Positions 1 to 37,530 of a stretch of 64,000 bases of DNA are shown piece by piece. Under the pieces are notes generated by a model that was not told the origin of the DNA, searched no databases, and saw only the letters and a list, made by a program, of their open reading frames with translations. Source of the DNA: a virus (lineage: Duplodnaviria > Caudoviricetes); the IMG/VR virus record IMGVR_UViG_3300035703_000088, positions 1,460 to 65,459 of that record; one strand, given 5' to 3'. A program made the translations under genes and the position numbers. Position 1 is the stretch's first letter, and the number at the start of each line of letters is the position of its first letter.

Positions 1-1
1 A

Positions 2-1546: not shown

Positions 1547-1554
1547 CCACCATC

Positions 1555-1581
1555 GGGGGTGTCCCGTAACGGGACACCCCC
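1555..1581. promoter_or_regulatory. Conserved palindrome copy 1 (GGGGG-TGTCCCGT A ACGGGACA-CCCCC)
   Basis: Perfect 13+1+13 inverted repeat, intergenic, 8 nt after the helicase stop; same 17-bp core as five other sites. Confidence 0.85.
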
Positions 1582-1627
1582 CTCTGACCAACCACCACCA
1601 ACCATCAAACCAATCAGGAGAACCACC

Positions 1628-2524
1628 ATGTACAGCGACAACGCCACCGACAAGCAGATCAACTTCGCCCTCTCTCTGTGGAAGACCCTCAACGAGGTCG
1701 TCATTGACACCGAGGACCCCGCCGTCAACTGGCAGGGCAACGCCGAGCAGACAGCCAAGGCTGACGCTCTGCTGTCCCGCACGCTGTCCGAGTTGGACAA
1801 GCCGGTCGTCAAGCGTCTCGGTGAGACCGAGTTCATCCTCAACACCGTGCAGGTGATTGAGGCGCTGGAGACTCACCTCACCGAGTTCACCAAGCCCGAG
1901 ATCAGTTCGGTCATTGACCGCCTCAAGAACCTCGTGGACTCAGCCCGTGCTGAAGTGGCACGCATCGGTATCACGATCAAGCCCGAGTGGGCTGACAAGT
2001 ACCCCGCCGTCCCCGCCGATGCGGAGCGGGTCATCAACTCCCGCTTCGCCAGCAAGTGCTCGGTGTGTGGCAAGCGTGACCAGTACATCGCCTACAACCG
2101 GCGTGGCTCGTGGTACCCGCTGTGCGAGATGTGCGCCCACCGCAACGGCGACGACAACGGCGACGACAAGTTGGACGAACTCATCCAGCAGGTGGCAGTG
2201 GCGCTGTCCAAGGGCAACAACGAGATGCTCAGCGTCGGTCTCGCCGTTGCCAACGCCGACGAACTGGACGGGTTCTCGTACTACCGAGTGTCCCGCTCCG
2301 GTGTCGCCAAGGTGAAGGGCGGTCAGCACTTCAACGCCACCGAGAACGTCTCGCCCAGCAAGGCTGTCGCACTGCTGGAGACCATCGTCACGGGTGACGT
2401 TGTCGCCATGGCGCAGGCGTTCGGACAGCACTTCACGATCTGTGGAGTGTGCAGTCGTGCCCTCAAGGATGCGGAGTCCAAGGCCCGAGGCATCGGTCCC
2501 GACTGCGCCAGCAATCTCTCCTGA
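1628..2524 (+). CDS. DUF6011-like Zn-finger domain protein
   Basis: C-terminal FGQHFTICGVCSRALKDAESKARGIGPDCA motif; internal CxxC...CxxC; start chosen from RBS AGGAG at 1616. Confidence 0.7.
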   Translation: MYSDNATDKQINFALSLWKTLNEVVIDTEDPAVNWQGNAEQTAKADALLSRTLSELDKPVVKRLGETEFILNTVQVIEALETHLTEFTKPEISSVIDRLKNLVDSARAEVARIGITIKPEWADKYPAVPADAERVINSRFASKCSVCGKRDQYIAYNRRGSWYPLCEMCAHRNGDDNGDDKLDELIQQVAVALSKGNNEMLSVGLAVANADELDGFSYYRVSRSGVAKVKGGQHFNATENVSPSKAVALLETIVTGDVVAMAQAFGQHFTICGVCSRALKDAESKARGIGPDCASNLS

Positions 2525-2533
2525 CACCTAGGT

Positions 2534-2587
2534 CGGGGGCGAGCATCTGTGGTGGGTGCTCGCCCCCGCTGTCCCGTTACGGGACAG
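2534..2587. promoter_or_regulatory. GC-rich hairpin (2534-2568) followed by conserved palindrome copy 2 (2569-2587)
   Basis: CGGGGGCGAGCA...TGCTCGCCCCCG, then C-TGTCCCGT T ACGGGACA-G. Confidence 0.8.
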
Positions 2588-2642
2588 TCAGGACAACCAA
2601 CCATCAAACCAATCATCAAACCAACCATCAAGGAGAACCATC

Positions 2643-3047
2643 ATGGGATACCTATCCGCACTCGGCATTGCCGACTCTAACCTCTCGCTGGAACAGCAAG
2701 TGCGCTGGCACCTGACCAGCAACTGCTACCCGCCCGTGCCGTTGATCATGGTGCCGGTCGCAGTGAATGCGATTGAGGCTGTCATCTCGGACGAGCCCAA
2801 TGCGGAGATTTCCCTCCCCGAGGGCGTGTCCTTTCGTGGGAACTCCGACTTCGCTCCTGCGTACGCCATCGTGGAAACGCTTCGGCTGGAAGCGTTCACC
2901 ATCACGGCGTTCAACCCGTGGGAACCGGACGAGGATGGAAACATCCTGTGCTTGGACTGCATGAACTCGTACGAGCCTGACGACATCGTTACCGACCCGC
3001 AGTGGAATGACCCCCGTTGCGAGGAATGTCACTACAAGAACAAGTGA
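2643..3047 (+). CDS. Hypothetical phage protein with C-terminal CxxC/CxxC
   Basis: RBS AGGAG at 2631; WHLTSNCYPPVP motif; CLDC...CEEC. Confidence 0.7.
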   Translation: MGYLSALGIADSNLSLEQQVRWHLTSNCYPPVPLIMVPVAVNAIEAVISDEPNAEISLPEGVSFRGNSDFAPAYAIVETLRLEAFTITAFNPWEPDEDGNILCLDCMNSYEPDDIVTDPQWNDPRCEECHYKNK

Positions 3048-3055
3048 GGAGAGAC

Positions 3056-3682
3056 ATGATCACCTGCATCTACTGTGGGCAACCGACTGTTCACCCTGAA
3101 CGTGTGTTTCGGTATTGCTCCGACGAGCGTTGTGTCCGTCGTGGTACAGCGTTTGACACACCCAAGCATGACAGCACTCCCGTCAGCGATGAGTCGGTTG
3201 TGCTGAGGGGGCAGGTTGACGCTCTTACCAAGGCACTGGAGGATGCCAACACCAAGGTGATGCAACTCACCGAACGGGTGGCATTGCTTCAGGCTCTCGT
3301 TGACGAGGGCTTTGACAACGCCCACAAGGTGCACGACACTGAGGTCAGCATCGCTAGGTTTGATTGCTACCGAGCGATGATTGACTCCCACAGGGAGTAT
3401 GTGTGGGCAGAAGACCTTGCCAACCATCCCGATGGGTATGTCAGTGGCACCTACAAGCAGATGCGCTCCACGCTGGAGCGTGGAATGAGCGCCGTGGGTA
3501 TCCGAACCTACGGCATCATCGGTGAGGCTGTGACTCTCAGCCCTGACGATGCCGATTTCAACCATGCTCGGTACCAATGTCACAACAATACCGGCACGGT
3601 AATCACGGTGGGATACGAAACCACCACGGGGGTGGTCATCCGACCATCCCTTGTTCACCCAACATGGAAAGGCACAGAATGA
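3056..3682 (+). CDS. Zn-finger + coiled-coil + GrpE-like C-terminal domain protein
   Basis: CIYC...CSDERC N-terminus, heptad-rich middle, C-terminus GTVITVGYETTTGVVIRPSLV resembling the GrpE beta domain. Confidence 0.5.
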   Translation: MITCIYCGQPTVHPERVFRYCSDERCVRRGTAFDTPKHDSTPVSDESVVLRGQVDALTKALEDANTKVMQLTERVALLQALVDEGFDNAHKVHDTEVSIARFDCYRAMIDSHREYVWAEDLANHPDGYVSGTYKQMRSTLERGMSAVGIRTYGIIGEAVTLSPDDADFNHARYQCHNNTGTVITVGYETTTGVVIRPSLVHPTWKGTE

Positions 3683-3858
3683 ACCTAAACCCCATAAAGC
3701 GTTACCACATTGAGTATGTGGTCCACATCTATGTGGACGCAGAAAACGAAACCGAGGCGAGGGAACTCGGCTCGTTGGCTCTTGCAGATGCCGACGACAT
3801 GGATTACCTAGCCAGCGACTGTGAGTTTGTTGCCATTGAGATTGAGGAGACAGAATGA
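3679..3858 (+). CDS. Small acidic hypothetical protein
   Basis: ATGA overlaps with both neighbours; V(D/E)AENExEA motif common in small phage early proteins. Confidence 0.65.
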   Translation: MNLNPIKRYHIEYVVHIYVDAENETEARELGSLALADADDMDYLASDCEFVAIEIEETE

Positions 3859-4358
3859 CCAAGTACATCGTGCACAAAGGAACCGGAACCATCATCGCTG
3901 TTGACGAGTGCGTCATCGTGGATGTCCCCGAAGAAGTGACCGACGAGATCACCGAACACGGCGGGGAGGATTACTTTGACGAAGAAGTAATCCTTGATCT
4001 CGCCGTGGAGACCGGCAAGCCCATCGTCGTCGGTCTGCCCTCGGACTCCACGGTGCACAACACCATGGTGTTCTCGCCCGAGGCTCTCCGCATGGAGGCT
4101 CGGGAGCGACTGGGCTGGGCCCACTACACCGACGACGAGGGTGACAACCCGTTCTACGACGAAGGTTGGGGCTTGTCCGAGGAACAGTACGAGTGGTGGA
4201 AGTGGCTCGCCAACGAAGCGTCAGACGAGGCGTTGGAATCCATCAGCCGTTCCATTGCTGTCTCCTCCCACCTGTGGGAAGAGTTTGACCTCGCCCTCAA
4301 GGACGCACTTCTTCGTGAGTTCATCAGACGACACGGAGGGCTTCGTACCACGAAGTAA
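3855..4358 (+). CDS. Hypothetical protein
   Basis: RBS GAGGAG; translational coupling; codon usage like neighbours. Confidence 0.7.
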   Translation: MTKYIVHKGTGTIIAVDECVIVDVPEEVTDEITEHGGEDYFDEEVILDLAVETGKPIVVGLPSDSTVHNTMVFSPEALRMEARERLGWAHYTDDEGDNPFYDEGWGLSEEQYEWWKWLANEASDEALESISRSIAVSSHLWEEFDLALKDALLREFIRRHGGLRTTK

Positions 4359-4363
4359 TCACT

Positions 4364-4392
4364 TGGGGGTGTCCCGTAACGGGACACCCCCA
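4364..4392. promoter_or_regulatory. Conserved palindrome copy 3
   Basis: TGGGGG-TGTCCCGT A ACGGGACA-CCCCCA, perfect 14+1+14, intergenic. Confidence 0.85.
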
Positions 4393-4417
4393 TCAACCAA
4401 CACAGGAGACCACCACC

Positions 4418-4651
4418 ATGATCAAGACATTCACCGTTTCGCTCAAGATTGCAGTGCAAGAGTTCCCCGAGGAAGTCATCAGCGAAGAAGACCAAATCTA
4501 CGCACTGCGTGACCTTCTCGTTGAAGGCTTGTACCAAGTCGGTGCCGGTCGTGAGGGAGACACCCTCAACGAGCACGGTGCCGGTGTGCACTGGTTCTAC
4601 ACCACCCTCAACATCACCCCAACCAACTACACCAACTCAACCGAGGAGTAA
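4418..4651 (+). CDS. Hypothetical protein
   Basis: RBS AGGAG at 4404; 77-aa ORF. Confidence 0.65.
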   Translation: MIKTFTVSLKIAVQEFPEEVISEEDQIYALRDLLVEGLYQVGAGREGDTLNEHGAGVHWFYTTLNITPTNYTNSTEE

Positions 4652-4654
4652 TCC

Positions 4655-4885
4655 ATGTCCGAATACAAGTGTGATCACTGTTCCCAAGAAGTGCCTGACG
4701 GCGACGGCTTGTACCTCGGAGACAACCGAGTGTGCGAGCCGTGCTACCTGACCTGCAACGAGTGCGGGAAGGTCGTCTCGCCTGACCGCTCCGAGTTGTG
4801 GGTCTCCGCTTCGGATGGTGCTGGTGCCCTCCGAGTGTGTCACATCTGTGAGCCTCCCGACAACGGAGATTGGGGGGACGAGTGA
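4655..4885 (+). CDS. Small Cys-rich (double Zn-finger-like) protein
   Basis: CDHC, CEPC, CNEC, CHIC; RBS GAGGAG. Confidence 0.65.
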   Translation: MSEYKCDHCSQEVPDGDGLYLGDNRVCEPCYLTCNECGKVVSPDRSELWVSASDGAGALRVCHICEPPDNGDWGDE

Positions 4886-5099
4886 AGACCGCCCTCGTTC
4901 TCCTAGCCCTGCTACTCGGTCTCTACACCTGCGCTGGTGCAGATGAGAAAGCCGAGTGCGACATCTCTTTCCACGCCGATGGAACGTGGTCTCCCGTAGG
5001 TTGGGACCCTTTCTTTGACGGTTACGGAAACTGTCAACTACCCACCGAGTACGGTGGCCACCCAGTCATAGTTCAGAACAACCAAACATGGAGGTACGC

Positions 5100-5103
<4 letters not shown>
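4882..5103 (+). CDS. Small secreted or membrane-anchored protein
   Basis: GTG start overlapping the upstream TGA; hydrophobic N-terminus KTALVLLALLLGLYTCAG. Confidence 0.55.
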
Positions 5104-7322
<2,219 letters not shown>

Positions 7323-7326
7323 CACG

Positions 7327-7355
7327 TTGCGTCTCCTAAATGGGGGCGCTACTAT
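7327..7355 (+). promoter_or_regulatory. Sigma70-type promoter for the AAA+ operon
   Basis: TTGCGT-17 nt-TACTAT in an intergenic gap. Confidence 0.6.
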
Positions 7356-7357
7356 CT

Positions 7358-7416
7358 CCTCCCCGCCTTCAGTACCCCTGATGGCGGGGAGGCTCGCACT
7401 GTCCCGTTACGGGACA
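7358..7416. promoter_or_regulatory. Hairpin (7358-7392) followed by conserved palindrome copy 4 (7400-7416)
   Basis: CCTCCCCGCC...GGCGGGGAGG, then TGTCCCGT T ACGGGACA, then an (AACCACC)3 leader. Confidence 0.8.
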
Positions 7417-7472
7417 CCAACCAATCAAACCACCAACCACCAACCACCAACCACACAAGAAAGAGAACCACC

Positions 7473-8747
7473 ATGGCAAAGATCAGTGACCTCCGTATCG
7501 GAGGCGAGTACGAAGTGACCGCCAAGAAGGCCAAGGCCGTCAATGCACGCTTGCTGGACGGCACGCCCGTGAGCATCCCCGTTGGAGAGCGGGTGGTCGT
7601 GAAGACCACCACCGTTGAGGCTGACGGCACGCAGTTCGCTCGGTGCATCAAGGCTGAGCGCATCTCGGGCGAGTTCGTGTACCTCCTGCCCAAGTTGTTG
7701 TCGGACGGCACCATCGTGACCCCGAGCGTCGTGGTCCCCGCCACTATCACGCAAAGCGCCCCGATTGCTCCGGTTGAAGTGAAGCCCATCGTGGATGCGA
7801 TGGATGTCCGGTTGGACCCCTACCGCCCCAACCCCGAGTTGGTGAAGCAGTATGTGTCCCGCAAGTTGTTCGGCTCCATCAAGGACACCGACCTCCTGCT
7901 CCACTACTGGCGTGACCGTAACTCTGATGGTTACTCCAGCAACGTCCTGCTGGTCGGTGACACGCAGGCTGGCAAGACTCTGCTCGTGCAGGTCCTCGCC
8001 ATCCTCGTCGCCAAGGAACTCGGGTACCCGAAGCCCTTGCCGGTGTTCACCCTCAGCGGTTCGGCTGGCGTGTCCGACCTTGACCTCTTCGGTCAGTCGG
8101 TGGCGCACATCGGACCCGATGGCGTGGAGCGCCTCGTGTTCCTCAACGGCATCGTGGAACTCGCCAGCAAGGTGGCGTGCATCCTGTACTTGGATGAGAT
8201 CAACATGATGCCCGAGCGGGTTACTTCAACCCTCCACCCCGTGGCTGACGACCGACGCTCGTTCGTCAACCGTCAGCGTGCGGTGGATGCCGAGGGCGAG
8301 TACCTCATGGCGCAGACCAAGATGCACAAGGACTGCTGGGTGATTGGCACGATGAACCCCCCGGGTTACCGTGGCACCTCGCCCCTGAACGAGGCGTTTG
8401 CGAACCGCTTCACGAAGCGTATCCCGTGGGGTTACGACCGTGATGTGGAGACCAAGTTGCTGGGTTCACCGGCCCTCGTCCTGCTGGGCGAGTCGCTTCG
8501 TGAGGCTCGCCGTCTTGGCTCGCTCACCACGCCGGTCGGCACGAAGTTGCTGATGGACCTGAAGCGTGACGTTGACACCCTCGGTGTGGACGTTGCCCTC
8601 GGTGTCTTCAGCGGGTTCTTTGACGACCGTGAGCGCACCAAGGTGGAAGCCATCCTCATGGACAAGTCCATCAAGACGTTCCTCGCTGAAGAGCGAGAGG
8701 GCACGGCTCCTCAGCCTGAACAGCAGGAGTCCCCAGTTCCTCAGTGA
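7473..8747 (+). CDS. MoxR/CobS-type AAA+ ATPase
   Basis: Walker A GDTQAGKT, Walker B LYLDEIN, GTMNP, EAFANRF; adjacent to the VWA partner. Confidence 0.88.
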   Translation: MAKISDLRIGGEYEVTAKKAKAVNARLLDGTPVSIPVGERVVVKTTTVEADGTQFARCIKAERISGEFVYLLPKLLSDGTIVTPSVVVPATITQSAPIAPVEVKPIVDAMDVRLDPYRPNPELVKQYVSRKLFGSIKDTDLLLHYWRDRNSDGYSSNVLLVGDTQAGKTLLVQVLAILVAKELGYPKPLPVFTLSGSAGVSDLDLFGQSVAHIGPDGVERLVFLNGIVELASKVACILYLDEINMMPERVTSTLHPVADDRRSFVNRQRAVDAEGEYLMAQTKMHKDCWVIGTMNPPGYRGTSPLNEAFANRFTKRIPWGYDRDVETKLLGSPALVLLGESLREARRLGSLTTPVGTKLLMDLKRDVDTLGVDVALGVFSGFFDDRERTKVEAILMDKSIKTFLAEEREGTAPQPEQQESPVPQ

Positions 8748-8816
8748 GTGGTTGTCGGAAGACACTCACTGAGTACCGCCTCCCCACCGGATTCCCCCCT
8801 ATGCCGGTGGGGAGGC
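8740..8816 (+). other. Two tandem stem-loops between the AAA+ and HTH genes
   Basis: CTCAGTGAGTG/CACTCACTGAG (8740-8773) and GCCTCCCCACCGG/CCGGTGGGGAGGC (8778-8816); no U-tract. Confidence 0.6.
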
Positions 8817-8848
8817 ACCCCCATTCAAACCACAACAAGGAGAAGAAG

Positions 8849-9343
8849 ATGAACATCTTCAAGAGGGTGGAAGTGGCGCACAAGATCGTCGCCCTCCACA
8901 ACGAAGGAAAGCCCCGAGCCGAGATCAAGCAGGCGCTGGGTGTCAGTGACAACCAAATCGTGTATGTGCTGAAGCACGCTCGTGAGGCAGGCATCCATGT
9001 GGAGCGCCGGTCGTCAGGTCGCCCCAGTGACCCGAAGATCGTCGCACGCCGTGAGGAAGTCGCACGCCGTTACAAGGCGGGTGAGTCCGGTCCCAGCATC
9101 GCTCGGGGCATGGGTATCCAAGTGGAGACCGTGTACGCAAGCCTGCGTGCCCTCGGTATTGAGCGCCGTAAGCCGGTCACCGATCTGCGTAATGAGACGA
9201 TTGTCCTGCGGTACACAGTCGGTGAATCCGGAGTCACAATCGCCAAGCAGTTGGGGGTCACCCCCAAGGTTGTGTACGACACGCTCCACCGTGCCGGTAT
9301 CACCGTTCGCCCCCGTGGCGCACGACGCAAATCAGGAAAGTGA
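8849..9343 (+). CDS. DNA-binding protein with three tandem HTH repeats
   Basis: Repeats GKPRAEIKQALGVS, GESGPSIARGMGIQ, GESGVTIAKQLGVT; RBS AAGGAG. Confidence 0.8.
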   Translation: MNIFKRVEVAHKIVALHNEGKPRAEIKQALGVSDNQIVYVLKHAREAGIHVERRSSGRPSDPKIVARREEVARRYKAGESGPSIARGMGIQVETVYASLRALGIERRKPVTDLRNETIVLRYTVGESGVTIAKQLGVTPKVVYDTLHRAGITVRPRGARRKSGK

Positions 9344-9354
9344 GGAGAAACAAC

Positions 9355-10170
9355 ATGAAATCAACCATCAAAACCATCACACCAGCAAACGCTGAGTCAC
9401 TGTTGAAGAAGAACAAGAACAACCGCACCGTTCGCCCACGGCGAGTAGACCAATACGCAAAGCAGATCGTCAGCGGTCAATGGCAGGTGACTGGAGAGGC
9501 GATCAAGATCGCCCTTGACGGGTCATTGCTTGACGGTCAGCACCGATTGCTCGCCGTGATCAAGGCTGGAATCCCCACCGAGTTCTTGGTGGTGGAGGGT
9601 CTTGACCCGAACGTCTTCAAGGTGTTGGACTCGGGCCTCATGCGTAGCGCTGGTGATGCACTCTCCAGCGTGGGCTTCACCTCCAGCAAGGAGACTGCGT
9701 CCATTGCTCGTCTCAGCATTGCTCATCAGTCGGGCATCTCGCCTCGCAACACCGAACTGATGTCGTTGATCACCCGTTCAGACATCTACGAGTTCTGCGT
9801 CAACAACCGTGACCTCATCACGGATGCTGTCCGAGAGTCGGGCCACATTTGGAAGAACGTGGCTGGGTCTCGCTCGGCGTGGGGAACCTTGTACATCGTG
9901 GCGACCATCAAGCATCAGGACAACGGCACCTACATTCAGGACTTCCTGAACTCGGTGGCGCAGGGTGCAAACCTGAGCGATGGAGACCCCCGACTGGCGC
10001 TCCGCAACTGGCTTGCCCGTCACCCCAAGGCACAGGAGCCTGTGACGAGCACCGAGCATCTCGGTACCTACATCACGGCGTACCGGAACTTTGCGACTGG
10101 GGTTCCGACGCATCGTCTCCGCACCTACCGTGCTGGTGGCGCTCTGCCCGAAATCCCCGAGCGCTGGTAA
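9355..10170 (+). CDS. ParB/Srx-fold (DGQHR) domain protein
   Basis: ITPxxAxxLL...NNR...LLDGQHRLLAV, typical of phage ParB-like proteins. Confidence 0.75.
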   Translation: MKSTIKTITPANAESLLKKNKNNRTVRPRRVDQYAKQIVSGQWQVTGEAIKIALDGSLLDGQHRLLAVIKAGIPTEFLVVEGLDPNVFKVLDSGLMRSAGDALSSVGFTSSKETASIARLSIAHQSGISPRNTELMSLITRSDIYEFCVNNRDLITDAVRESGHIWKNVAGSRSAWGTLYIVATIKHQDNGTYIQDFLNSVAQGANLSDGDPRLALRNWLARHPKAQEPVTSTEHLGTYITAYRNFATGVPTHRLRTYRAGGALPEIPERW

Positions 10171-10189
10171 GCGTCCCACACACGCTGAG

Positions 10190-10220
10190 GAGGGAGTGTC
10201 CCGTAACGGGACACTCCCTC
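10190..10220. promoter_or_regulatory. Conserved palindrome copy 5
   Basis: GAGGGAG-TGTCCCGT A ACGGGACA-CTCCCTC, perfect 15+1+15. Confidence 0.85.
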
Positions 10221-10240
10221 TGACCGCCACCGAGAGAACC

Positions 10241-10540
10241 ATGCACGAACTGATCTCCCACGATTCCCTATTCAAAGAAGCAATGCGCCTGCGCCACATC
10301 TGTGGCGTGCTGTACACGGGGCTAATGAACAGTCCCTGTACCTGCGACTCCGTCTGTGACGACCCTGATTGTGCAGAATGCGCCCCATACGCTCGGGGCG
10401 AAGCATTCTGCCAACGATGCCTGTCCATGAGTATCTATGAGTCATGGATGGGTGATTATTACCTAGATGTAATCCATCCCATGGACTCCCATGGGGCGTA
10501 CACCCCCGCCAAACCACCAGTAGAACAGGAACCCGAATGA
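10241..10540 (+). CDS. Cys-rich hypothetical protein
   Basis: ATG after GAGAGAACC; multiple Cys pairs. Confidence 0.6.
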   Translation: MHELISHDSLFKEAMRLRHICGVLYTGLMNSPCTCDSVCDDPDCAECAPYARGEAFCQRCLSMSIYESWMGDYYLDVIHPMDSHGAYTPAKPPVEQEPE

Positions 10541-10947
10541 CCATCAAAGCCTCACAGTACGGCCTCCATCCCGACGACGACCTGACCGACCCCGAGAAGC
10601 AGGCTGACCTGTACCGATACTGGGAAGCCCTCAAGATGCAGATCATCCAACACATGACAGAGCACAACGAGGTCATCCCGTTCAGCACCGTGTGGCTCAC
10701 CCTCGCCCGTGACTTCCCGACCTACCCCGTTGAGGAAATCCAAGATGCCTGCTACGCCGGTATGGACTTGGTCCTCGGGGTAGACGACGAAGACGAGGAC
10801 TGGGAAGAAGTCCCCGAACACGAACTCAGCGAGGCCGACAAAGCCGTCCGTGACGACTTCCTGAACTTCATCCAAGCGGTGATCAAGAAGAAGCGTGAAG
10901 AGGAAGAACTGTTCTACTCGCTCTTGGATGACCCCAATGGACGGTGA
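10537..10947 (+). CDS. Acidic hypothetical protein
   Basis: ATGA coupling; 136-aa ORF. Confidence 0.65.
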   Translation: MTIKASQYGLHPDDDLTDPEKQADLYRYWEALKMQIIQHMTEHNEVIPFSTVWLTLARDFPTYPVEEIQDACYAGMDLVLGVDDEDEDWEEVPEHELSEADKAVRDDFLNFIQAVIKKKREEEELFYSLLDDPNGR

Positions 10948-11179
10948 CTCCCACAACCTCCGAGTCGTACTGGAGTTGAGCGTTCCTGACGGGGTGTACT
11001 TCCCTGTCAGGAGCGTCGCCTCCTGCGACTCTGATCATTTCAACCCCGACGACACCTCAGAAATAATGCGGAATCTAACCCGATTCTTATCCCACTCCCT
11101 GACCGGAGTTGGCATAGAGTTAGTAGGCAGTATCTGCACAAAGTCCCAACAAACCCACAACACAGAAAGCAACCCATGA
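10937..11179 (+). CDS. Hypothetical protein
   Basis: Fills the gap and overlaps both neighbours. Confidence 0.5.
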   Translation: MDGDSHNLRVVLELSVPDGVYFPVRSVASCDSDHFNPDDTSEIMRNLTRFLSHSLTGVGIELVGSICTKSQQTHNTESNP

Positions 11180-11541
11180 ACACCACAACCCTCAAGAAGA
11201 CCGCCGAGAAATACATAGACCTTGTGTCCCAAGCCAAGGTCCTCTCCGAAGCCATCAAGGCGCTGGAAGAGGTCCTGAAGAACGAGGTCGCTGAAGGCAC
11301 CGAGATCGTCATCAACGGCGTGGCTCTCAAGCACATCGCCCAAGACCGGCGCTCGTTCAACGCCATCGTCCTCAAGGACTTGGTGTCCCCATCCATCTTC
11401 AAGAAACTGACCGAGGTCAGCGTGAAGGCATCCGCAGTGGACAGCGCCATTGAACTGGGCCACGTTGATGCTGACAGCCTCGCCCCAGCGACTGAAGTGA
11501 AGCATTCCTCCTACCTGAAAGTTGTGGTGAAGAAGTCATGA
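11176..11541 (+). CDS. Hypothetical protein (coiled-coil N-terminus, Gp157/Gam-like architecture)
   Basis: Helical N-terminus followed by RRSFN...; architecture similar to 32001-32435. Confidence 0.55.
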   Translation: MNTTTLKKTAEKYIDLVSQAKVLSEAIKALEEVLKNEVAEGTEIVINGVALKHIAQDRRSFNAIVLKDLVSPSIFKKLTEVSVKASAVDSAIELGHVDADSLAPATEVKHSSYLKVVVKKS

Positions 11542-11930
11542 AGACCAAACTGATCATCGGCCTCGGGGCCCTCGCACTGACCGCCTGTGGCGGTACCAAG
11601 ACCGTGTACGTTGAGCGCACCGACGCTCCTGCAAAGACCACGGACGCTCCGATTGCGACTCCTGCCCCGACTCAGGCTCCGTGGACAGAAGAAGACGAGT
11701 TCATTTACGACATTGAGAGCAACTACTCAGGAACAATCTATGTCGGTCGCTACGAGATGATTGAGACTGGCAGGATTGTCTGCGACTCCCTTCTTGACGG
11801 GATGACAGGGCAAGAAGTGGTTTGGGCCATTGAGAGCGCTGGTGGAGACCTTGAGTTTGTTCAGTTGGTGGCTTTGTCCGCAGTAGCAAACTTCTGCCCC
11901 AGTCAAATCTACAAGTTTGACGGGTTGTGA
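11538..11930 (+). CDS. Lipoprotein with DUF732-like domain
   Basis: Lipobox LTAC; Thr/Pro linker; G.xVC...AVANFCP two-Cys pattern. Confidence 0.7.
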   Translation: MKTKLIIGLGALALTACGGTKTVYVERTDAPAKTTDAPIATPAPTQAPWTEEDEFIYDIESNYSGTIYVGRYEMIETGRIVCDSLLDGMTGQEVVWAIESAGGDLEFVQLVALSAVANFCPSQIYKFDGL

Positions 11931-12325
11931 TGAGAAGGCTCATCCCGATTCTGTTCGTGGCGGTGGGTTGCTCGGTGTCACAGCCGAGCAACACCACCAC
12001 ACTGGCACCGTTGGTGACCACAACAACCACGACCACAACTCCCCAGGTCAAAGAACCGTTGTCATCCGCCGATCCAAACATGGCGTTCCTACTCAGCCTT
12101 ACCCAGTCTTTCGGTAACTTTGATGGTTACTACAGCCCCATTGAGGCGTTGTTACAGGGTCAGCAGTATTGCCTAGCGGCTCGTGGTGGCATGACGCGCT
12201 TCACCATCACGGATTCCATCAACGAAGGCGCAGAAACCACTGAGGAGATTCGCCTTGAACTAAACATTGTTACCTCGGCACTTACTTACTTGTGCCCCGA
12301 TCAGGAGTACCGCATCAACCCATGA
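11927..12325 (+). CDS. Lipoprotein with DUF732-like domain
   Basis: Lipobox-like AVGC; poly-Thr linker; GQQYC...ALTYLCP. Confidence 0.65.
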   Translation: MMRRLIPILFVAVGCSVSQPSNTTTLAPLVTTTTTTTTPQVKEPLSSADPNMAFLLSLTQSFGNFDGYYSPIEALLQGQQYCLAARGGMTRFTITDSINEGAETTEEIRLELNIVTSALTYLCPDQEYRINP

Positions 12326-12621
12326 GCACCAAGTTCATTCCCAACTACATGATTCGCCCTGTGGCAGGGTCTGATCAAGTCAACCTACGCATTATCAACC
12401 CATCCGACCCCAATGACTACATCTCCCTCCTCAAGGACGGTGTGGAGGGGGCGTGCTACGAGGTCATTGAGGCGCACAACTCCCAAATCGGAGACCCCAA
12501 CTTCTTCTACGAATGGAACGATGCTGTGGTCTTCTACGAGGAAGATGAGTTGTCCCAGTACGACGCCGACGAAGATGACTTTGACTGGGACAGCGATGAC
12601 GACGACGAGAACTATTTCTAA
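12322..12621 (+). CDS. Hypothetical protein with acidic tail
   Basis: ATGA coupling. Confidence 0.6.
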   Translation: MSTKFIPNYMIRPVAGSDQVNLRIINPSDPNDYISLLKDGVEGACYEVIEAHNSQIGDPNFFYEWNDAVVFYEEDELSQYDADEDDFDWDSDDDDENYF

Positions 12622-12636
12622 CCACAAGGGGGAACC

Positions 12637-13053
12637 ATGCAAACATTCATTCCATACGGCGACGACTTCCGAGCCAACGCCATGGTGCTGGACCGCCAGC
12701 GCCTCGGCAAACAACGTGTAGAGGGCCTTCAGATTCTCAACACTCTGACGGGCCGTAGCAAGGGCTGGCGCAGTCACCCTGCCGTCAAGATGTGGGCTGG
12801 ATACGCCGATGTGTTGGCCCAGTACACCATCGCCATGTGCGACCACTGGGTCAGCCTCGGATACAAAGACACCGTGGCTGACAAGGTCAGGGCGCTCGGT
12901 CTCAGGACGATGACGGACGGCGTACCGGAGTTCCTGTACGACGACGAGGTCATCGCCTCCCACCGCTCCAACCTGATTCGGAAACTCCCCGAGCACTACG
13001 GGGTCGTGTGGCCCGATGTGTCGCCCGATCTCCCGTACAAGTGGGTAGTGTGA
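12637..13053 (+). CDS. MSMEG_6728-family / pyrimidine-dimer DNA glycosylase-like protein
   Basis: MQTFIPY...LDRQRLGKQRVE...HPAVKMWAGY...SHRSNLIRK. Confidence 0.8.
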   Translation: MQTFIPYGDDFRANAMVLDRQRLGKQRVEGLQILNTLTGRSKGWRSHPAVKMWAGYADVLAQYTIAMCDHWVSLGYKDTVADKVRALGLRTMTDGVPEFLYDDEVIASHRSNLIRKLPEHYGVVWPDVSPDLPYKWVV

Positions 13054-13058
13054 TCGCC

Positions 13059-13340
13059 ATGGAGTACGAGAAGGAATCAGAAGACCCCTCGTTGCGTAAC
13101 CTCCTGAACTGGGTGGCAAAGCAAGAGGGGGGCTTCGCCCTGAAAGCAGAACAGAACCAATACAGCAAGCCTCTGTTCCCCAAACACACCAAGAACCCGC
13201 ACTTCCAACAACAGTTGTTTGAAACACCTAAGCCGTCCAACCGGCTCAGCGTTACCACTCACACCTGCGTTTGGTGTGGGGAAGAGTTGGAGTCGGAAGA
13301 CCTACTGGAGATGCACGAAGATGGGCACTTTGATGACTGA
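13059..13340 (+). CDS. Protein with C-terminal C2H2-like zinc finger
   Basis: CVWCGEELESEDLLEMHEDGH. Confidence 0.6.
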   Translation: MEYEKESEDPSLRNLLNWVAKQEGGFALKAEQNQYSKPLFPKHTKNPHFQQQLFETPKPSNRLSVTTHTCVWCGEELESEDLLEMHEDGHFDD

Positions 13341-13515
13341 CCACGACCACATGAGACAGGCGTACATGGAGGCTCTTACCCTTGGCCTTACTCAGGCTGA
13401 GGAAGACCTCAACGCCCTCGTCGTACTCGCCTACGACTTGGTGAACACCAACAGCCTCAACGAGGATGACCGGCAGTACTTGCTCGCCATACTGACGGCG
13501 TGTGAGTCACTCTGA
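13333..13515 (+). CDS. Small hypothetical protein
   Basis: Overlaps the upstream stop; ends just before the terminator. Confidence 0.55.
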   Translation: MTDHDHMRQAYMEALTLGLTQAEEDLNALVVLAYDLVNTNSLNEDDRQYLLAILTACESL

Positions 13516-13522
13516 GAAACAG

Positions 13523-13576
13523 AAAGACCCCCCTCTCGTAACCAACACGGTTGCGGGAGGGGGGTCTTTTTTTTTT
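13523..13576. terminator. Intrinsic, probably bidirectional terminator at the convergence of the + and - blocks
   Basis: AAAGACCCCCCTC...GAGGGGGGTCTTTTTTTTTT. Confidence 0.85.
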
Positions 13577-13577
13577 G

Positions 13578-13979
13578 TTATCTGCCCTCGGACAGCATCT
13601 CGTGTACTTCGTCTTCGCTCTTGATCAGCAACCGTGACACCTCTCGTACTGGGTCCTCGTGCTTCAGCCTGCGAAGGTCTTTGACCAGTTGCGTTGCCGT
13701 GATGTCCCGTGAAAGTTTCCCAGCATCAATCTGCTGGCGCTCCTCCTTGGAGAAGCCACCGAAGAAGCCATGCTGGATGTGGTTTGACAGGGCGAAGTCC
13801 AAGCAGTTGTCACGAACCGGACACAGGGCGCACAGCAGGCGCTCTGCTGAGTATCCGGTGCTCCCTCGCTCCCGAAAGAACTTGTTGGGGTCAGAACCCT
13901 TGCATGAAGCCAACTCTCTCCACGATGAGTCTTTGTCCGGAACGGCAAGCGATGGTAGGTCAATCAGCCCTACGAGCAT
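13578..13979 (-). CDS. whiB: WhiB-family transcription factor with C-terminal extension
   Basis: WRELASC...FF...CALCPVRDNCLDFAL...GFFGG...ER. Confidence 0.9.
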   Translation of the reverse strand: MLVGLIDLPSLAVPDKDSSWRELASCKGSDPNKFFRERGSTGYSAERLLCALCPVRDNCLDFALSNHIQHGFFGGFSKEERQQIDAGKLSRDITATQLVKDLRRLKHEDPVREVSRLLIKSEDEVHEMLSEGR

Positions 13980-15061
13980 TATGGTCTCCTGTATTGGTCA
14001 AACAGTTGCTGGTACGTCTGCACGCCGTGCTTGATGTCTCGGTGTTGCACTGCCTCGTAGCAGGCTTCCCCTTCTTCACGACGAGCATTGGGTGAGCGTA
14101 GCGCATTCAGGTGACGAATCCAATCCGTGGGGCGCTTGGCAACACGACCAATACCGAGCGAGCGCTGGAGATCAATGTACGCATCTAGGTTCTGCGCCAC
14201 GAACGGAATACCGCTAGCGCTGTACTCAAGGCCCTTGATGTCGGACTTCGCTCGGTTGAATGGGATGTTGTTCAACGGCACAACACCAACATCAAACTTG
14301 AGGTAAGACGGGTAAGTCAGGTGGTCAGTAAGCGGGAGCGTGGACACCTGATCATCACGGAGACCCACCAGCGATGCCACGCTATTCATGGACGGGTGCG
14401 CCCCAGTGTGGTGGAACTTGATGGAGCCTGCGTTCACCATGGGGCGAATAACGCCAGCGAGTGTCTCAAGGTCGTTGCTCCGGTGGCCCGTACTGCCTGC
14501 CCAGCCAACGAGGGGCACATCGGTGTCGGTGTGCTCGTGCTTGGTGAAGCGCTGGGTGTCCACATAGTTTGGAATAACCACAATCGGGCACTTGGTAACC
14601 CACGACTTAATGCGGTCAGCGAGGTACGGGGTGCTCACCGTGACGATGTCGGACTGAGCAAGGATGGCTCGGTAGTGGTTGATGTTGATCTCAGGGCTGT
14701 ACTTGGGGTGCGTGTTGAGAAAGGCGTTGTTGCTTGCCGACAGGCCCCAGTACCAGTCGTCTAGGTCGTTGATGATGACCTGTCCTGCTGAGCGGGAGAT
14801 TTTCATGTTGATTGAGGCGCCCGAGTGCATCAGGCGTTGCATCCACACCACATCAATGTCGTGAACGGCTTCGTCACCACTACGGATTTGGAATGACCCG
14901 TGCTTAGGGTCAAAGATAAGAGTTCCCGTGATGAACTCCATGCCGGTGAGGTGGGGAAGGTACTGGGCGACACGGGCCCATCCCGAGCCTCCCCACTTCT
15001 CTAGCCCGTCCTCAACACGGTCAGGGTGAATCCAGTCTCCGGATGCTACTCCTACCTTCAT
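13979..15061 (-). CDS. GT-B fold glycosyltransferase
   Basis: NDLDDWYW, VTVSTPYL, VGWAGSTGH, KSDIKGLEYSASGIPFV. Confidence 0.85.
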   Translation of the reverse strand: MKVGVASGDWIHPDRVEDGLEKWGGSGWARVAQYLPHLTGMEFITGTLIFDPKHGSFQIRSGDEAVHDIDVVWMQRLMHSGASINMKISRSAGQVIINDLDDWYWGLSASNNAFLNTHPKYSPEININHYRAILAQSDIVTVSTPYLADRIKSWVTKCPIVVIPNYVDTQRFTKHEHTDTDVPLVGWAGSTGHRSNDLETLAGVIRPMVNAGSIKFHHTGAHPSMNSVASLVGLRDDQVSTLPLTDHLTYPSYLKFDVGVVPLNNIPFNRAKSDIKGLEYSASGIPFVAQNLDAYIDLQRSLGIGRVAKRPTDWIRHLNALRSPNARREEGEACYEAVQHRDIKHGVQTYQQLFDQYRRP

Positions 15062-15072
15062 AACAACTCCTC

Positions 15073-15126
15073 ATAGTGGTGTCCCGTTACGGGACACCAC
15101 TATAGTACGGAGTCAGGGCAGGTCAA
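15073..15126 (-). promoter_or_regulatory. Conserved palindrome copy 6 (15073-15103) overlapping the -10 and start site of a - strand promoter
   Basis: ATAGTGG-TGTCCCGT T ACGGGACA-CCACTAT (15+1+15); on the - strand TTGACC-16 nt-TATAGT (15126 to 15099). Confidence 0.75.
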
Positions 15127-15643
15127 GGTATCGCCACGGCGACCAACCGGATGCCTCCTGTAGGCGCACAGCGAACGTGAGGTTCGGTCGGGCGGTCAGG
15201 ATCATCTCTCGGGTGATGCCCATGGACATCGCCCAATCCTTGTGGACCGACCACTGGATTTGAGCGAGGCCGAGAGAGCCGTTGCCCTCCAAGCCGTCAA
15301 TGCATCGGGACTCAACCCACAGCACTCGGCTCCAAATGGGCCAGTCCTCAATCTTCCCGCCGACCTCCAAGAGGAGCGGGAGCCACTCAGCACACCGTGG
15401 GTGGGAGGCGGTCATCACATCCACCTGAGCCTGCCATGCGGCGAGGGTCTCTAGGTACGCAATCTCCTCGGGCGAGAGTGTCGTCGTAGGGGCGACAGTC
15501 GTGGTGGTCGTCGGTGGCGGTGTGATTACCACGGTCACGGGAAGTGACTGCGGGATGGTGGTTGGAGACGTTGGAGCCTCCGAAGCCCCACAGCCGGTGG
15601 TTAGAGCCGTCAGGGCAATAAATGACAAGGTGGTTAATTTCAA
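15113..15643 (-). CDS. Lipoprotein with lytic transglycosylase (SLT-like) domain
   Basis: TTG start after AAGGAGG; lipobox TTGC; Thr linker; VESRC...GLAQI...N...GWSPW. Confidence 0.75.
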   Translation of the reverse strand: MKLTTLSFIALTALTTGCGASEAPTSPTTIPQSLPVTVVITPPPTTTTTVAPTTTLSPEEIAYLETLAAWQAQVDVMTASHPRCAEWLPLLLEVGGKIEDWPIWSRVLWVESRCIDGLEGNGSLGLAQIQWSVHKDWAMSMGITREMILTARPNLTFAVRLQEASGWSPWRYLDLP

Positions 15644-15732
15644 GGGTTTACCCTCCTTAGTTGGGGAGCACACCGGAAGGGATAGTCGTGTGCTCTCACG
15701 GGAGCGGGGATGGTTCCCCGCCCTTCCTCGGA

Positions 15733-16137
15733 CTACCTGTGCGGGAGGATTTGGTACTTCAGTTCGTCAATGTTGACTGGCTGACCCGCCCTTGGATAGA
15801 CCGAGAGATCAATGTATGGTCGCTTGGAGTTGTCGGCTCCCGAGCACTTAGCGCAGGCGCACCCTTGACGATAGCGGGTGATCGTGCCATGCGGTCGCAG
15901 AGCCGTCTTCTTTCCGTTCCTTTCTTGTGGAGTTAGTCCACCCCACATACCGTATTTTTCATCGTCTTTGTTACTATAACTATAGTTCAAACAAGACCGC
16001 CATGCGGGGCAACGGTTGCAAACCTCACGGGCTACGGCGTAGTAGTCGTTGGGGGTGGGTGATTCCAGCGGAGGGTACCACGGGTCGGGCGCAAGGCCAC
16101 GACACAACGCATCTTCGGTCCACTCCGCTAGGTCCAC
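15733..16137 (-). CDS. whiB: WhiB-family protein with C-terminal HGT..Y..GCxCxxC motif
   Basis: WTEDALC...CNRCPAWRSC...YGMWGGLTPQER; HGTITRYRQGCACAKC. Confidence 0.88.
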   Translation of the reverse strand: MDLAEWTEDALCRGLAPDPWYPPLESPTPNDYYAVAREVCNRCPAWRSCLNYSYSNKDDEKYGMWGGLTPQERNGKKTALRPHGTITRYRQGCACAKCSGADNSKRPYIDLSVYPRAGQPVNIDELKYQILPHR

Positions 16138-16356: not shown

Positions 16357-16390
16357 AGGGGAGCGACCTTACCAGCAACTGGTTGGTAGG

Positions 16391-18743: not shown

Positions 18744-18775
18744 TTTGTGCTCCTTATGGGTTACGGTTAGTTAAA

Positions 18776-37520: not shown

Positions 37521-37530
37521 GGTAACCATC

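Follow-up and report, generated by a model that had tools for sequence, protein, structure and literature searches.

The conserved inverted repeats (CIR) of phage φC31 are operators of its c repressor; this phage is temperate, its repressor is known and conserved early promoters lie downstream of the CIR sites. The stoperators of Cluster A phages (L5) are 13-bp, asymmetric and orientation-dependent repressor sites, many copies of which lie inside transcription units and away from promoters, and their specificity co-evolves between related phages. A 17-bp repeat, 5'-TGTTCGGNNNCCGAACA, has been described in Cluster O mycobacteriophages, for which the authors suggest a dimeric regulator (PMC4351075), and Cluster EG Microbacterium phages carry an 18-bp inverted repeat, GATCAACCNNGGTTGATC (PMC7302621). 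At the RNA level, it has been proposed that hammerheads clustered around prophage genes cleave long transcripts into mRNAs the length of single genes (PMC3088659).

The DNA analysed here (the window, 64,000 nucleotides) comprises bases 1460-65459 of a 65,459-bp IMG/VR phage record. The phage is a freshwater, actinobacterial one. Almost all gene junctions along one operon-like arm were marked by the same 17-base palindrome. An exact search placed TGTCCCGTWACGGGACA at 1560, 2570, 4370, 7400, 10197 and 15080 of the window (six copies seen versus 0.00 expected from 100 shuffles), and a tolerance of up to three mismatches added no further site in the window. All six copies claimed in an earlier note were therefore present and exact. 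Three further exact copies lay 5' of the window, at record positions 411, 977 and 1332, which brought the record to nine. All of these fell within its first 16.6 kb, and the remaining 49 kb contained no copy. Their claimed intergenic position was borne out for the whole record, as 9/9 copies fell between our own ORF calls. The central triplet was TAA or TTA in a ratio of 4:5, and either orientation occurred. The flank extensions described earlier (GGGGG/CCCCC, TGGGGG/CCCCCA, GAGGGAG/CTCCCTC and ATAGTGG/CCACTAT) were all found, and the second and fourth window copies were indeed unextended, with a separate GC hairpin 5' of each. The original observation was real and understated what the record and its relatives carry. 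The features of the window are as follows.

1560..1576, plus strand: core copy, fourth in the record, centre TAA, with five flank pairs (1555-1581)
1577..1627, plus strand: example of a G-poor, C/A-rich leader, from core to ATG
2535..2567, plus strand: accessory GC hairpin adjoining the 2570 core on its 5' side; in five related sequences the pairing is kept through compensatory changes as well as U·G pairs
2570..2586, plus strand: core copy, centre TTA, no direct flank extension
4370..4386, plus strand: core copy, centre TAA, with six flank pairs (4364-4392), 11 nt past a stop codon
7358..7392, plus strand: accessory GC hairpin on the 5' side of the 7400 core; conserved through compensatory changes in four related sequences
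7400..7416, plus strand: core copy, centre TTA, flanks not extended
8849..9343, plus strand: gene for a triple-HTH protein, pI 10.8, three tandem HTH modules
10197..10213, plus strand: core copy, centre TAA, with seven flank pairs and one G·U (10189-10221)
2587-2642, 4387-4417, 7417-7472 and 10214-10240, plus strand: other leaders
13521..13578, both directions: two-way intrinsic terminator at the convergence of the plus arm with the minus-strand genes; its stem of 20 bp comes with an A-tract and a U-tract
15080..15096, minus strand: core copy separating two genes of the minus strand; seven flank pairs (15073-15103)
15099..15126, minus strand: sigma-70-like site TTGACC-16-TATAGT, 10/12, a consensus match only

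The motif search of the whole record and of relatives, as proposed in the earlier note, extended the palindrome to a family, TGTCCC-R-NNN-Y-GGGACA, which was also present in six related phage records and amounted to 57 exact copies over the seven. In the complete 91.4-kb relative G034, 12/12 copies were located inside 69,466-86,829, a single 17-kb arm. Among 42 distinct aligned rows, the outer 6+6 bases did not vary in any (42/42). Positions 7 and 11 were G:C in 22 rows and A:U in 20, were never unpaired and never formed a hybrid, and their state was uniform within each genome. Positions 8 and 10 were complementary in 36/42 rows, although a hairpin cannot make use of this pair, which would leave a loop of a single nucleotide. 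The centre varied: the 12 copies of G006 contained ACT (4), AGT (4), TGT (3) and ACA (1), and strain variant L224 had TTA instead of TAA at the 4370 site. Two pairs of close relatives were compared. G006, with a G-type core, and G034, with an A-type core, were 91-97.5% identical over the arm, with most proteins at 94-100%; G000 and G032 were similarly close (helicase 94%, major capsid protein 100% identical). In both pairs, positions 7-11 differed in every copy while the flanks were otherwise identical, and the leftmost genes of the arm were the most diverged. Close relatives have rewritten the centre of the palindrome at all copies together. Such a pattern points to a trans-acting, phage-specific reader; gene conversion (concerted evolution) could imitate one.

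The sequences flanking the core were analysed for pairing. The mean number of contiguous flank pairs was 3.22, versus 0.98 ± 0.26 when partners were swapped (reached in 0/10,000 shuffles), and the flank covariation score was 0.321 versus 0.140 ± 0.014 (0/500 shuffles; 42 rows). Overall, 80% of flank cells were paired, compared with at most 47% after sliding the partner. Within the helices, the sense strand contained five G·U and no A·C pairs; together with the compensatory changes, these G·U pairs point to a transcribed hairpin. The accessory hairpin at 2535-2567 behaved alike, with 5/20 predicted pairs altered on both sides yet kept in five related sequences, and the hairpin segments folded at about -42 to -51 kcal/mol. 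With covarying flanks, G·U on the sense strand only and an invariant core, the palindrome shows two layers of selection, one on its exact sequence and one on the RNA hairpin, which supports the selection on sequence and structure proposed earlier.

The position of the element relative to the genes was also constrained. A core copy was present in 8/11 plus-arm gaps of at least 49 nt in this record. The distance from stop codon to core was 11-13 nt in 5/8 plus-arm copies, and that from core to ATG 47-56 nt in 6/8 (overall range here, 27-56 nt). The 1560 core, for instance, begins 13 nt past the stop codon of an SNF2-like helicase gene, with the next ATG 51 nt on. Read on its own strand, the minus-strand 15080 core has a TGA stop codon 16 nt upstream and a GAGGAG Shine-Dalgarno sequence with an ATG directly downstream, where a glycosyltransferase-like gene starts (13979-15061, minus strand). 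A sigma-70-like scan returned three sites versus 4.9 ± 2.1 expected, as consensus matches only. The best match in 17 kb adjoins this same copy on the minus strand, which agrees with the promoter overlap described earlier; its -10 hexamer is part of the left flank of the core, so that the start site would fall inside the core. The promoter previously placed about 45 nt upstream of the fourth copy was not recovered, as no plus-strand promoter-like site was found in 1-17000. Promoter-like sequence was missing from the surroundings of most copies; an operator at these sites could work only as a roadblock. In the terminator scan, 0/6 window copies scored as terminator-like: an intrinsic terminator is a GC-rich hairpin directly followed by a U-tract, whereas the palindromes lack a U-tract and the sequence 3' of the copies was C/A-rich, with 2-11% T. 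The sequence was present in none of the RNA runs checked.

The element was compared with the described systems. In φC31 (AJ006589), we counted 15 copies of ACTCACGTGAGT with an invariant palindromic core and ACCT/AGGT extensions; they were mostly intergenic, with 8/15 lying 10-29 nt past an annotated stop codon, and their flanks paired at 9.33 versus 7.95 ± 0.40 of 14 positions (3/5000 shuffles). The copy at 34784 sits at the apex of a hairpin, with a T-run after it. The palindrome studied here is likewise a conserved core repeated at intergenic, early-region sites, with variable flanks that extend the dyad beyond shuffled flanks. It differs from the φC31 CIR, which are even-length and unrelated in sequence, and from φC31 in that no integrase or repressor homologue was found and no promoter-like sequence follows most copies; the c repressor had no tblastn match at E ≤ 1e-3 in G000, G006, G032 or G034. 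The likeness to the L5 stoperators is one of concept: in both, many short sites lie within transcription units and away from promoters, and their specificity would co-evolve between related phages. That much of the analogy drawn in the earlier note stands, but the stoperator is an asymmetric, one-orientation 13-bp site, and the site here is a perfect or near-perfect palindrome, symmetric and situated in an RNA hairpin.

With the Cluster O repeat it shares a 7-3-7 architecture over 17 bp that begins with TGT and ends with ACA, arms that do not change from copy to copy, a central triplet that varies and is found either way round, and G/C-rich flanks, as well as many sites in the short intergenic regions of one long operon and indels through recombination between copies (PMC4351075). 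In our alignment the inverted repeat was of this 7-3-7 kind, with the outer 6 bp invariant and the seventh position G:C or A:T, and its central triplet was variable and unoriented. However, the Cluster O arms are TGTTCGG...CCGAACA and occur in more than 30 copies genome-wide, including coding sequence, whereas 9-12 copies confined to one 17-kb arm were found here. Corndog, unlike this phage, carries 34 copies genome-wide, about a third of them inside genes, and its flanks do not pair (0.71 contiguous pairs versus 1.01 ± 0.16 shuffled; AY129335); no homologue of the Corndog DNA-binding proteins (gp53, gp76, gp90 and gp96 were searched) was detected here, which counts against a shared type of reader. 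Like the palindrome, the Cluster EG repeat occupies short intergenic regions towards one end of the genome, in 8-10 copies, and is kept even where the surrounding DNA diverges, but its distance to the downstream start codon is 14-22 bp, not 27-56 nt, and it has an even-length spacer (PMC7302621).

The element is best explained as a putative punctuation of gene junctions that would be specific to this phage clade. For the four options listed in the earlier note (a hairpin read by a protein, an RNA stem, a transcriptional roadblock, a cassette-shuffling site), sequence alone does not decide, and the evidence favours a merger of two of them, in which a site for a phage factor would be embedded in an RNA stem. 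Our leading reading, held tentatively, likens the element to the φC31 CIR or the Cluster O repeats: a site bound by a phage-specific factor would lie inside an intercistronic RNA hairpin. At the DNA level, the two-fold symmetric 17-bp sequence would be bound by a sequence-specific, phage-encoded factor, most likely a dimeric DNA-binding regulator as for the φC31 CIR and the Cluster O repeats. We infer that a protein reads the core and that it acts on duplex DNA, not on RNA. Symmetric reading of a duplex is suggested by a centre that occurs in both orientations and flips between strains at one site, by the complementarity of positions 8/10 that a hairpin could not use, and by positions 7/11, which exchange G:C for A:U without ever being unpaired. 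Repression or a roadblock of the arm is our guess for the effect of binding. Since the site lies within a long transcription unit without internal promoters, the palindrome would also be transcribed, and with its variable flanks or the adjacent accessory hairpin it would form a 12-15-bp GC-rich triloop hairpin starting a few bases past the stop codon. This hairpin would end or protect the upstream message and set it off from the following gene's leader, which is G-poor and unstructured; the hairpin may influence RNA stability or 3'-end formation.

The triple-HTH protein is a candidate reader, being the only recognisable nucleic-acid binder that tracks the motif. Its gene was present in 5/5 IMG/VR loci retrieved with it, all of which carry the motif, and absent from 3/3 relatives without the motif; its earlier nomination as a binder is supported to this extent, as presence and absence. 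The co-occurrence is limited to one clade and is thus confounded by ancestry. The G-type phage G006 and the A-type phage G034 differ in this protein by two conservative substitutions only, T33S and F40L, so it may not set specificity. Its only matches in isolated phages were endonuclease or GIY-YIG homing endonuclease regions of Burkholderia phages and one hypothetical protein. Of the other two proposed binders, the MerR-like protein was found in all relatives regardless of the motif, and the ParB-like protein (9355-10170) has no homologue in G006. The palindromes as centromere-like parS sites of the latter protein were also considered, and this explanation is scarcely tenable. Several palindromes are grouped in one region, and homologues of the neighbouring gene are labelled 'ParB-like nuclease domain protein' in some actinophages. 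However, parS sites co-occur with a cognate ParB, and this pattern was contradicted in both directions, since G006 has 12 copies and no ParB-like gene while G002 and G003 possess the gene without the motif; moreover, Pfam detected no ParB domain in the protein.

A close rival to the binding site within a hairpin is an RNA-only reader or processing site, which we regard as possible and somewhat less likely. The hairpin would then be the target of a phage or host RNA-binding protein or endoribonuclease cutting or marking the polycistronic transcript at each junction, a protein-dependent counterpart of hammerheads, with the apical closing pair and loop as a phage-specific address. The sister phage G005 carries eight type II hammerhead-like elements at eight consecutive junctions of the homologous arm, one of which precedes a 31% homologue of the gene following the 2570 copy. 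Hammerheads at equivalent junctions suggest that the need at the junction is an RNA event, which favours this rival; gene-length mRNA cutting has been proposed for clustered type II prophage hammerheads, which likewise occur as one element per gene junction of a phage operon (PMC3088659). Flank covariation with sense-strand G·U, structural conservation of the accessory hairpins, the element's start 11-13 nt past the stop codon in 5/8 copies, the concentration of between-phage variation at the stem tip (positions 7-11) and a tRNA-like CCA end directly adjoining a core in G001 and G006 are all consistent with it. On the other hand, the ORFs scanned showed no RNA-binding domain, whether of an RNase, Cas6-like or other kind, the 12 stem positions are invariant with zero compensatory changes, which is unusual for an RNA-read stem, the complementarity of positions 8/10 has no explanation in RNA, and the loop sequence differs within one genome. 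Unlike hammerheads, the palindrome has no ribozyme core, and any cutting would need a protein. A new self-cleaving ribozyme based on the hairpin, for which the position matching the G005 hammerheads is the sole support, is barely conceivable: Rfam yielded no ribozyme family, either at its gathering threshold or with E relaxed to 10, a hammerhead search of G000 gave no matches, every invariant base sits in a plain Watson-Crick stem, and the sequence adjoining the stem is not conserved among copies or strains.

Hairpins without any reader, acting as partial terminators or attenuators lacking a U-tail or as barriers to 3'-exonucleases, and kept identical by gene conversion and template-switch correction of palindromes, are a distinctly unlikely explanation. 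The strength of the hairpins suits it, and the centre flips between strains and the hybrid centres TGT/ACA and TCG/CGA would be expected of conversion in either orientation. The early terminators of φC31 reportedly lack poly-U tails, to judge from the title of a 1995 paper. Against it, the outer 12 bases are identical although the arms are only about 69-77% identical and other intergenic sequence is unalignable, and no G:C/A:T hybrid occurs at positions 7/11. Where transcription has to end, this phage uses a canonical terminator with a U-tract, and the mycobacterial RNA polymerase requires a U-tract (PMC3993855). Still more improbable is a selfish or recombinational repeat that spreads to junctions, or a linker promoting cassette exchange between phages. 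Gene exchange beside copies, as the shuffling option implied, does occur: the two genes between record positions 411 and 1332 are swapped for two unrelated genes in G006, where the core-gene-core-gene-core layout is kept, and the ParB-like gene, present here and missing from G006, is an indel adjoining a copy. Indels between the repeats are likewise described for Cluster O (PMC4351075). The exchange nevertheless looks like a by-product. The fixed spacing to stop and start codons argues for function and against a selfish repeat, and one deletion between strains, which removes the gene at 3056-3682, is not flanked by copies. The 65-kb record and the additional 26 kb of G034 yielded no transposase, integrase or recombinase; in particular, the Y1 transposase or integron integrase that accompanies REP/RAYT or attC-like repeats was not detected by Pfam or PHROGs among the called ORFs of both, a search that may miss small or uncalled ORFs.

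A more speculative and doubtful extension would make the core a switchable 'address label', part of a protein-dependent system that punctuates messages. A phage factor would recognise the tip of the hairpin wherever two cistrons of the early arm meet, and would cut, stabilise or silence each message. A protein would then take the role that eight hammerhead ribozymes have in the sister phage. If this were true, immunity-like diversifying selection would act on positions 7-11 and would account for the concerted rewriting of all 8-12 copies in near-identical, co-circulating phages, a change that has taken place in at least two separate pairs of close relatives.

The leaders between core and ATG, which the earlier note matched to a candidate sRNA, were confirmed as G-poor and CA-rich, being composed of 5-19% G, 34-52% C and 22-48% A. 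Their length differed between strains, with insertions at 1590 and 4395 and a 7-nt deletion at 7428. One plus-strand G/T-rich complement to the CA-rich leaders was noted at 30522-30534.

The window held exactly six copies of TGTCCCGTWACGGGACA, a 17-bp palindrome that an earlier reading of the sequence had placed at these same positions (100 shuffles gave a chance expectation of 0.00), and tolerating up to three mismatches brought in no near-copy. Three further exact copies were located upstream of the window, at positions 411, 977 and 1332 of the viral record (G000), which brought the total to nine; all of these fell within the first 16.6 kb, and the other 49 kb was free of the palindrome. The palindrome was by far the most repeated word of this genome. 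The record, 65,459 bp long and estimated to be 70% complete, encodes a contractile-tailed phage gene set (tail sheath, tube, baseplate, major capsid and portal) and replication genes (DNA polymerase, primase, DnaB-like helicase and UvsX-like recombinase), as well as two WhiB-like proteins, DUF732 and DUF6011. Judged from this gene content, the host is an actinobacterium. The major capsid protein was 59% identical to its counterpart in Streptomyces phage BRock, and the capsid search led to a large family of 91–97-kb phages; nucleotide searches returned no nucleotide-level relative among isolated phages. Freshwater and lake metagenomes from a large number of studies contained near-identical DNA. 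The plus-strand genes occupied positions 1–14,974 of the record, the remainder being on the minus strand, and the two sets met at a terminator, which Rfam scored as a weak ctRNA_p42d look-alike:

Window 13521–13578, both strands: canonical two-way intrinsic terminator with a 20-bp stem, an A-tract and a T-tract (U-tract), at the meeting point of the plus arm and the minus genes

The copies were placed regularly in the plus-strand, operon-like region, hereafter the arm. Eight of its 11 gaps of at least 49 nt held one copy each. The core started 11–13 nt past the stop codon in five of these eight copies and 26–77 nt past it in the remaining three, two of which had an extra hairpin in between. 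The distance from core to ATG was 47–56 nt in six of the eight, and the leader thus spanned was G-poor and C/A-rich, with a GGAG-type ribosome-binding site at its end. The ninth copy (window 15080) kept the stop–hairpin–start order on the minus strand. No copy overlapped a gene in G000; one copy in its relative G006 (position 7559) apparently overlapped the final codons of a 56-aa predicted ORF. CCAA/CCAC-type repeats made up the leaders at window 1577–1627, 2587–2642, 4387–4417 and 7417–7472 (G content 5–11%), and the G000 record itself begins inside such a repeat. Leader lengths varied among strains (a 12-nt insertion, a 5-nt insertion and a 7-nt deletion).

Pattern and protein searches identified six further records with the element, and the exact copies summed to 57 in the seven records.

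Exact copies of the core in the seven IMG/VR records
G000: 9 copies, G-type (TGTCCCG…CGGGACA)
G006: 12 copies, G-type
G001: 2 copies, plus one 1-mismatch copy in non-coding DNA preceding the arm, G-type
G032: 8 copies, A-type (TGTCCCA…TGGGACA)
G033: 12 copies, A-type
G034: 12 copies, A-type
G035: 2 copies, A-type

In G034, a complete genome with terminal repeats (91,403 bp), all 12 copies lay within positions 69,466–86,829. Elsewhere in IMG/VR the exact 17-mer occurred on one other contig, as a single copy that is probably due to chance. Scanning IMG/VR with TGTCCCGNNNCGGGACA returned 74 loci, including G006 (12 copies) and G001 (two); single matches outside these two were taken as chance, leaving aside contig L158, which had two matches 36 nt apart. 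The metagenome scan gave at least 121 loci, with the context of this phage in five among the matches listed (L170, L220 and L222–L224), and the listed holders of the sequence included no RNA run. Comparison of four DNA runs revealed strain variation only; many contigs ended at the repeats, as is expected of assemblies.

The constraint on the element was evaluated in an alignment of 43 copies in sense orientation (42 distinct rows). The outer six bases of each arm of the palindrome did not vary. Of the 42 rows, 22 had G:C and 20 had A:U at positions 7 and 11, with no unpaired row and no single-sided change; positions 8 and 10 were complementary in 36 rows (including one U·G) and unpaired in six, and the central base was unconstrained. 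Over the eight flank pairs, 80.1% of cells were paired, compared to 67.2 ± 1.2% with shuffled partners (0/500) and at most 46.8% with the partner slid, the covariation score was 0.321 versus 0.140 ± 0.014 when shuffled (0/500), and contiguous Watson–Crick flank pairs numbered 3.22 versus 0.98 ± 0.26 with swapped partners (23 copies; 0/10,000); these shuffle counts are not probabilities, because the aligned rows share descent and probably also inter-copy conversion. Wobble within the helices comprised five sense-strand G·U pairs (seven counting the G001 duplicates) and no A·C, the latter being the would-be G·U of the opposite strand. The two cores without flank extension each had a separate hairpin just upstream, which other phages retained through compensatory substitutions and U·G pairs. 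The junction segments folded at about −42 to −51 kcal/mol. On these alignments, the covarying flanks and the strand bias of the wobble pairs show selection for folding of a single-stranded sense molecule, for which the mRNA is the simplest candidate. We regard the element as real and conserved, with selection of two kinds acting on it.

A stabilising stem alone would not need twelve invariant bases, given that the arms of some element-bearing phages were only about 69–77% identical. The complementarity of positions 8 and 10 does not represent an RNA pair, since the loop would be one base. The centre was found in both orientations and changed orientation at a given site from strain to strain. 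A symmetry that reaches the centre, together with a centre free of orientation, looks like a duplex site for a symmetric dimer, and replication errors that correct palindromes could have contributed to the pattern. Our tentative preference is a dual reading, in which the core would be the site of a phage-specific factor, most likely as duplex DNA, inside an intercistronic RNA hairpin that would act on the message. A reader of RNA only, or an RNA processing site, is possible and nearly as likely; folding of the sense strand is in line with it, and the duplex-like centre is the feature it leaves aside. Hairpins without a reader that were homogenised by conversion, and selfish or recombinational repeats, share what likelihood is left with some minor options. 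In the ORFs scanned, searches for RNase-like or Cas6-like domains, integrases and transposases were negative.

The most surprising result of the analysis was a concerted switch of the core between close relatives. The arms of G006 and G034 were 91–97.5% identical, with most proteins at 94–100%, and G000 and G032 were similarly close. In both pairs, positions 7–11 differed at every copy (e.g., GAGTC versus ACGGT), the bases around the switched centres being otherwise identical over tens of bases, and no mixing of G-type and A-type cores was seen within one genome. The switch resembles the co-evolution of repressor and operators in heteroimmune phages, and it speaks for a reader that the phage itself encodes and that acts in trans. 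The alternative to such a reader is that a master copy efficiently converts the others. Restriction avoidance was rejected as the origin of the centres, as the GANTC, GTNAC and ACNGT pentamers were abundant across all four genomes.

Among the proteins that the earlier note had proposed as binders, the ParB-like one was excluded, being absent from G006 and present in the motif-free relatives G002 and G003. Another, a protein with three tandem HTH modules (window 8849–9343, pI 10.8), was present in all clade members with the region available and absent from G002, G003 and G005, and all five loci found with it in IMG/VR carried the motif. Its G006 and G034 versions differed solely by T33S and F40L. 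Position 40 alone differed in both pairs (V/F in G-type, I/L in A-type phages), and no residue tracked the core type alike in both. Its only matches among isolated phages were Burkholderia phage regions annotated as endonuclease or GIY-YIG homing endonuclease and one hypothetical protein. The leftmost arm genes were the most diverged in both pairs, so the reader may be encoded among them, beyond the start of the G000 record. The first arm gene, located there, encodes a 253-aa candidate reader that was 64% identical between G006 and G034 and had no Pfam or PHROG match.

The arm was preceded by a long structured, non-coding leader. It measured about 1 kb in G001, and 550 nt or more of it remained in G006, which is cut at its start:

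L169 1–571 (G006): structured leader
L088 about 17760–18826 (G001): structured leader
G034 about 69300–69921: structured leader

It ended in a tRNA-like minihelix (a 7-bp acceptor-like stem, a small hairpin, a T-arm-like hairpin and ACCA) directly adjoined by a core, and ARAGORN and Rfam did not recognise this tRNA-like element. One further core lay inside the leader of G034. A second conserved word, GATAGTGA, followed 31–35 nt past the core start at four junctions in each of G006 and G034 and may be an internal promoter element. These junctions accounted for four of its six occurrences per genome, and the word was absent from G000:

G006 record 2040, 3668, 5349 and 12592: junctions with GATAGTGA
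G034 71509, 72532, 74216 and 82091: junctions with GATAGTGA

Sister lineages placed other elements at the equivalent junctions:

G005 90876–94098 (locus L094 15928–19150): array of type II hammerhead-like elements at eight junctions
G002 (L092 559–6674): palindromes with stop codons at stop/ribosome-binding-site junctions
G003 (L090 539–8049): palindromes with stop codons at stop/ribosome-binding-site junctions

The eight G005 elements occupied eight consecutive junctions, one each, just upstream of an SNF2 helicase gene. Six of them reached E ≤ 0.01 against Rfam RF02276 (25.8–36.4 bits, cut-off 37), and their stem II covaried among copies (ATGAC/GTCAT versus ACGAC/GTCGT). Of 32 related records, one had hammerheads, and one of these ribozymes stood before a gene whose homologue (31%) comes after the copy at window 2570. 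Clustered hammerheads next to prophage genes are known, and they have been proposed to divide long transcripts into mRNAs of gene length (PMC3088659). In G002 and G003, short odd palindromes containing stop codons (CTAATSATTAG nine times, CTAGYSRCTAG seven times) stood right before the ribosome-binding sites of the homologous arm. From what these lineages place at equivalent junctions, the arm therefore seems to require some junction element, and in one lineage that element is one that acts on RNA. One of the G002 palindromes formed the anticodon-arm-like part of a tRNA-like gene (ARAGORN tRNA-SeC(tca), L092 781–850).

Actinobacteriophage genomes pose a recurring puzzle in the short, invariant inverted repeats found at their gene junctions. 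Like the G000 element, the repeat TGTTCGGNNNCCGAACA of Cluster O mycobacteriophages has a 7-3-7 design with invariant arms, a centre free of orientation and flanks rich in G/C; its function was left open by the authors (PMC4351075). The 18-bp start-associated inverted repeat of Cluster EG Microbacterium phages is likewise unexplained in its description (PMC7302621). When the Cluster O repeat was computed on the Corndog genome (34 copies), flank pairing was not found, whereas flanks pair in the G000 clade. Most Corndog sites (AY129335; L306/L307) had a one-sided top-strand GGGG flank and no paired extension. The nearest system with a known function is the φC31 CIR, whose sites are operators of the c repressor. 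Computation on AJ006589 gave 15 CIR copies that share an invariant palindromic core, and eight lay 10–29 nt past an annotated stop; their flanks paired above shuffled expectation, and one copy capped a hairpin with a T-run. The φC31 proteins are unrelated to those found here. The present element belongs with these known actinophage repeats, its added interest being RNA-level selection, the concerted switches and a ribozyme-bearing sister. The clade adds evidence that selection also acts on a junction repeat as a hairpin in the sense-strand RNA. It further provides two natural ‘specificity swap’ pairs, more than 90% identical and with all copies differing at five central bases, as ready-made cognate and non-cognate controls, and these pairs narrow the search for a reader to the most diverged left-end genes. 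The sister phage with hammerheads at equivalent junctions hints at what the junctions need. If found, the reader would be a compact orthogonal tool, addressed by sequence, with which operons of Actinobacteria could be punctuated or regulated.

Several other loci of the genome were recorded. A 208-aa gene (window 3056–3682) was missing in contigs from two other metagenome runs through a clean joint of 3052/3056 to 3697, a strain-level indel without palindromes at its borders. Window 5100–8747 encodes an AAA_5 ATPase (PHROG ‘porphyrin biosynthesis’) and, ahead of it, a 740-aa protein in which acidic D/E residues form a long repeat. We take the pair to be CobT/CobS-like or MoxR–VWA-like in look; it was present in the palindrome phages G006, G002 and G003 and absent from the hammerhead phage G005. 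Two plus-strand genes (window 37077–37824) lay within the minus-strand block: one is ferritin/Dps-like (Pfam Ferritin), and the other encodes a very basic 97-aa protein with 81–100% identity in G006, G002, G003 and G032 and no match in G005. On the minus strand, window 16391–17809 encodes a 472-aa protein matching PHROG 887 (‘queuine tRNA-ribosyltransferase’), 59–81% conserved in all relatives; such DpdA-like phage proteins can mark deazaguanine DNA modification.
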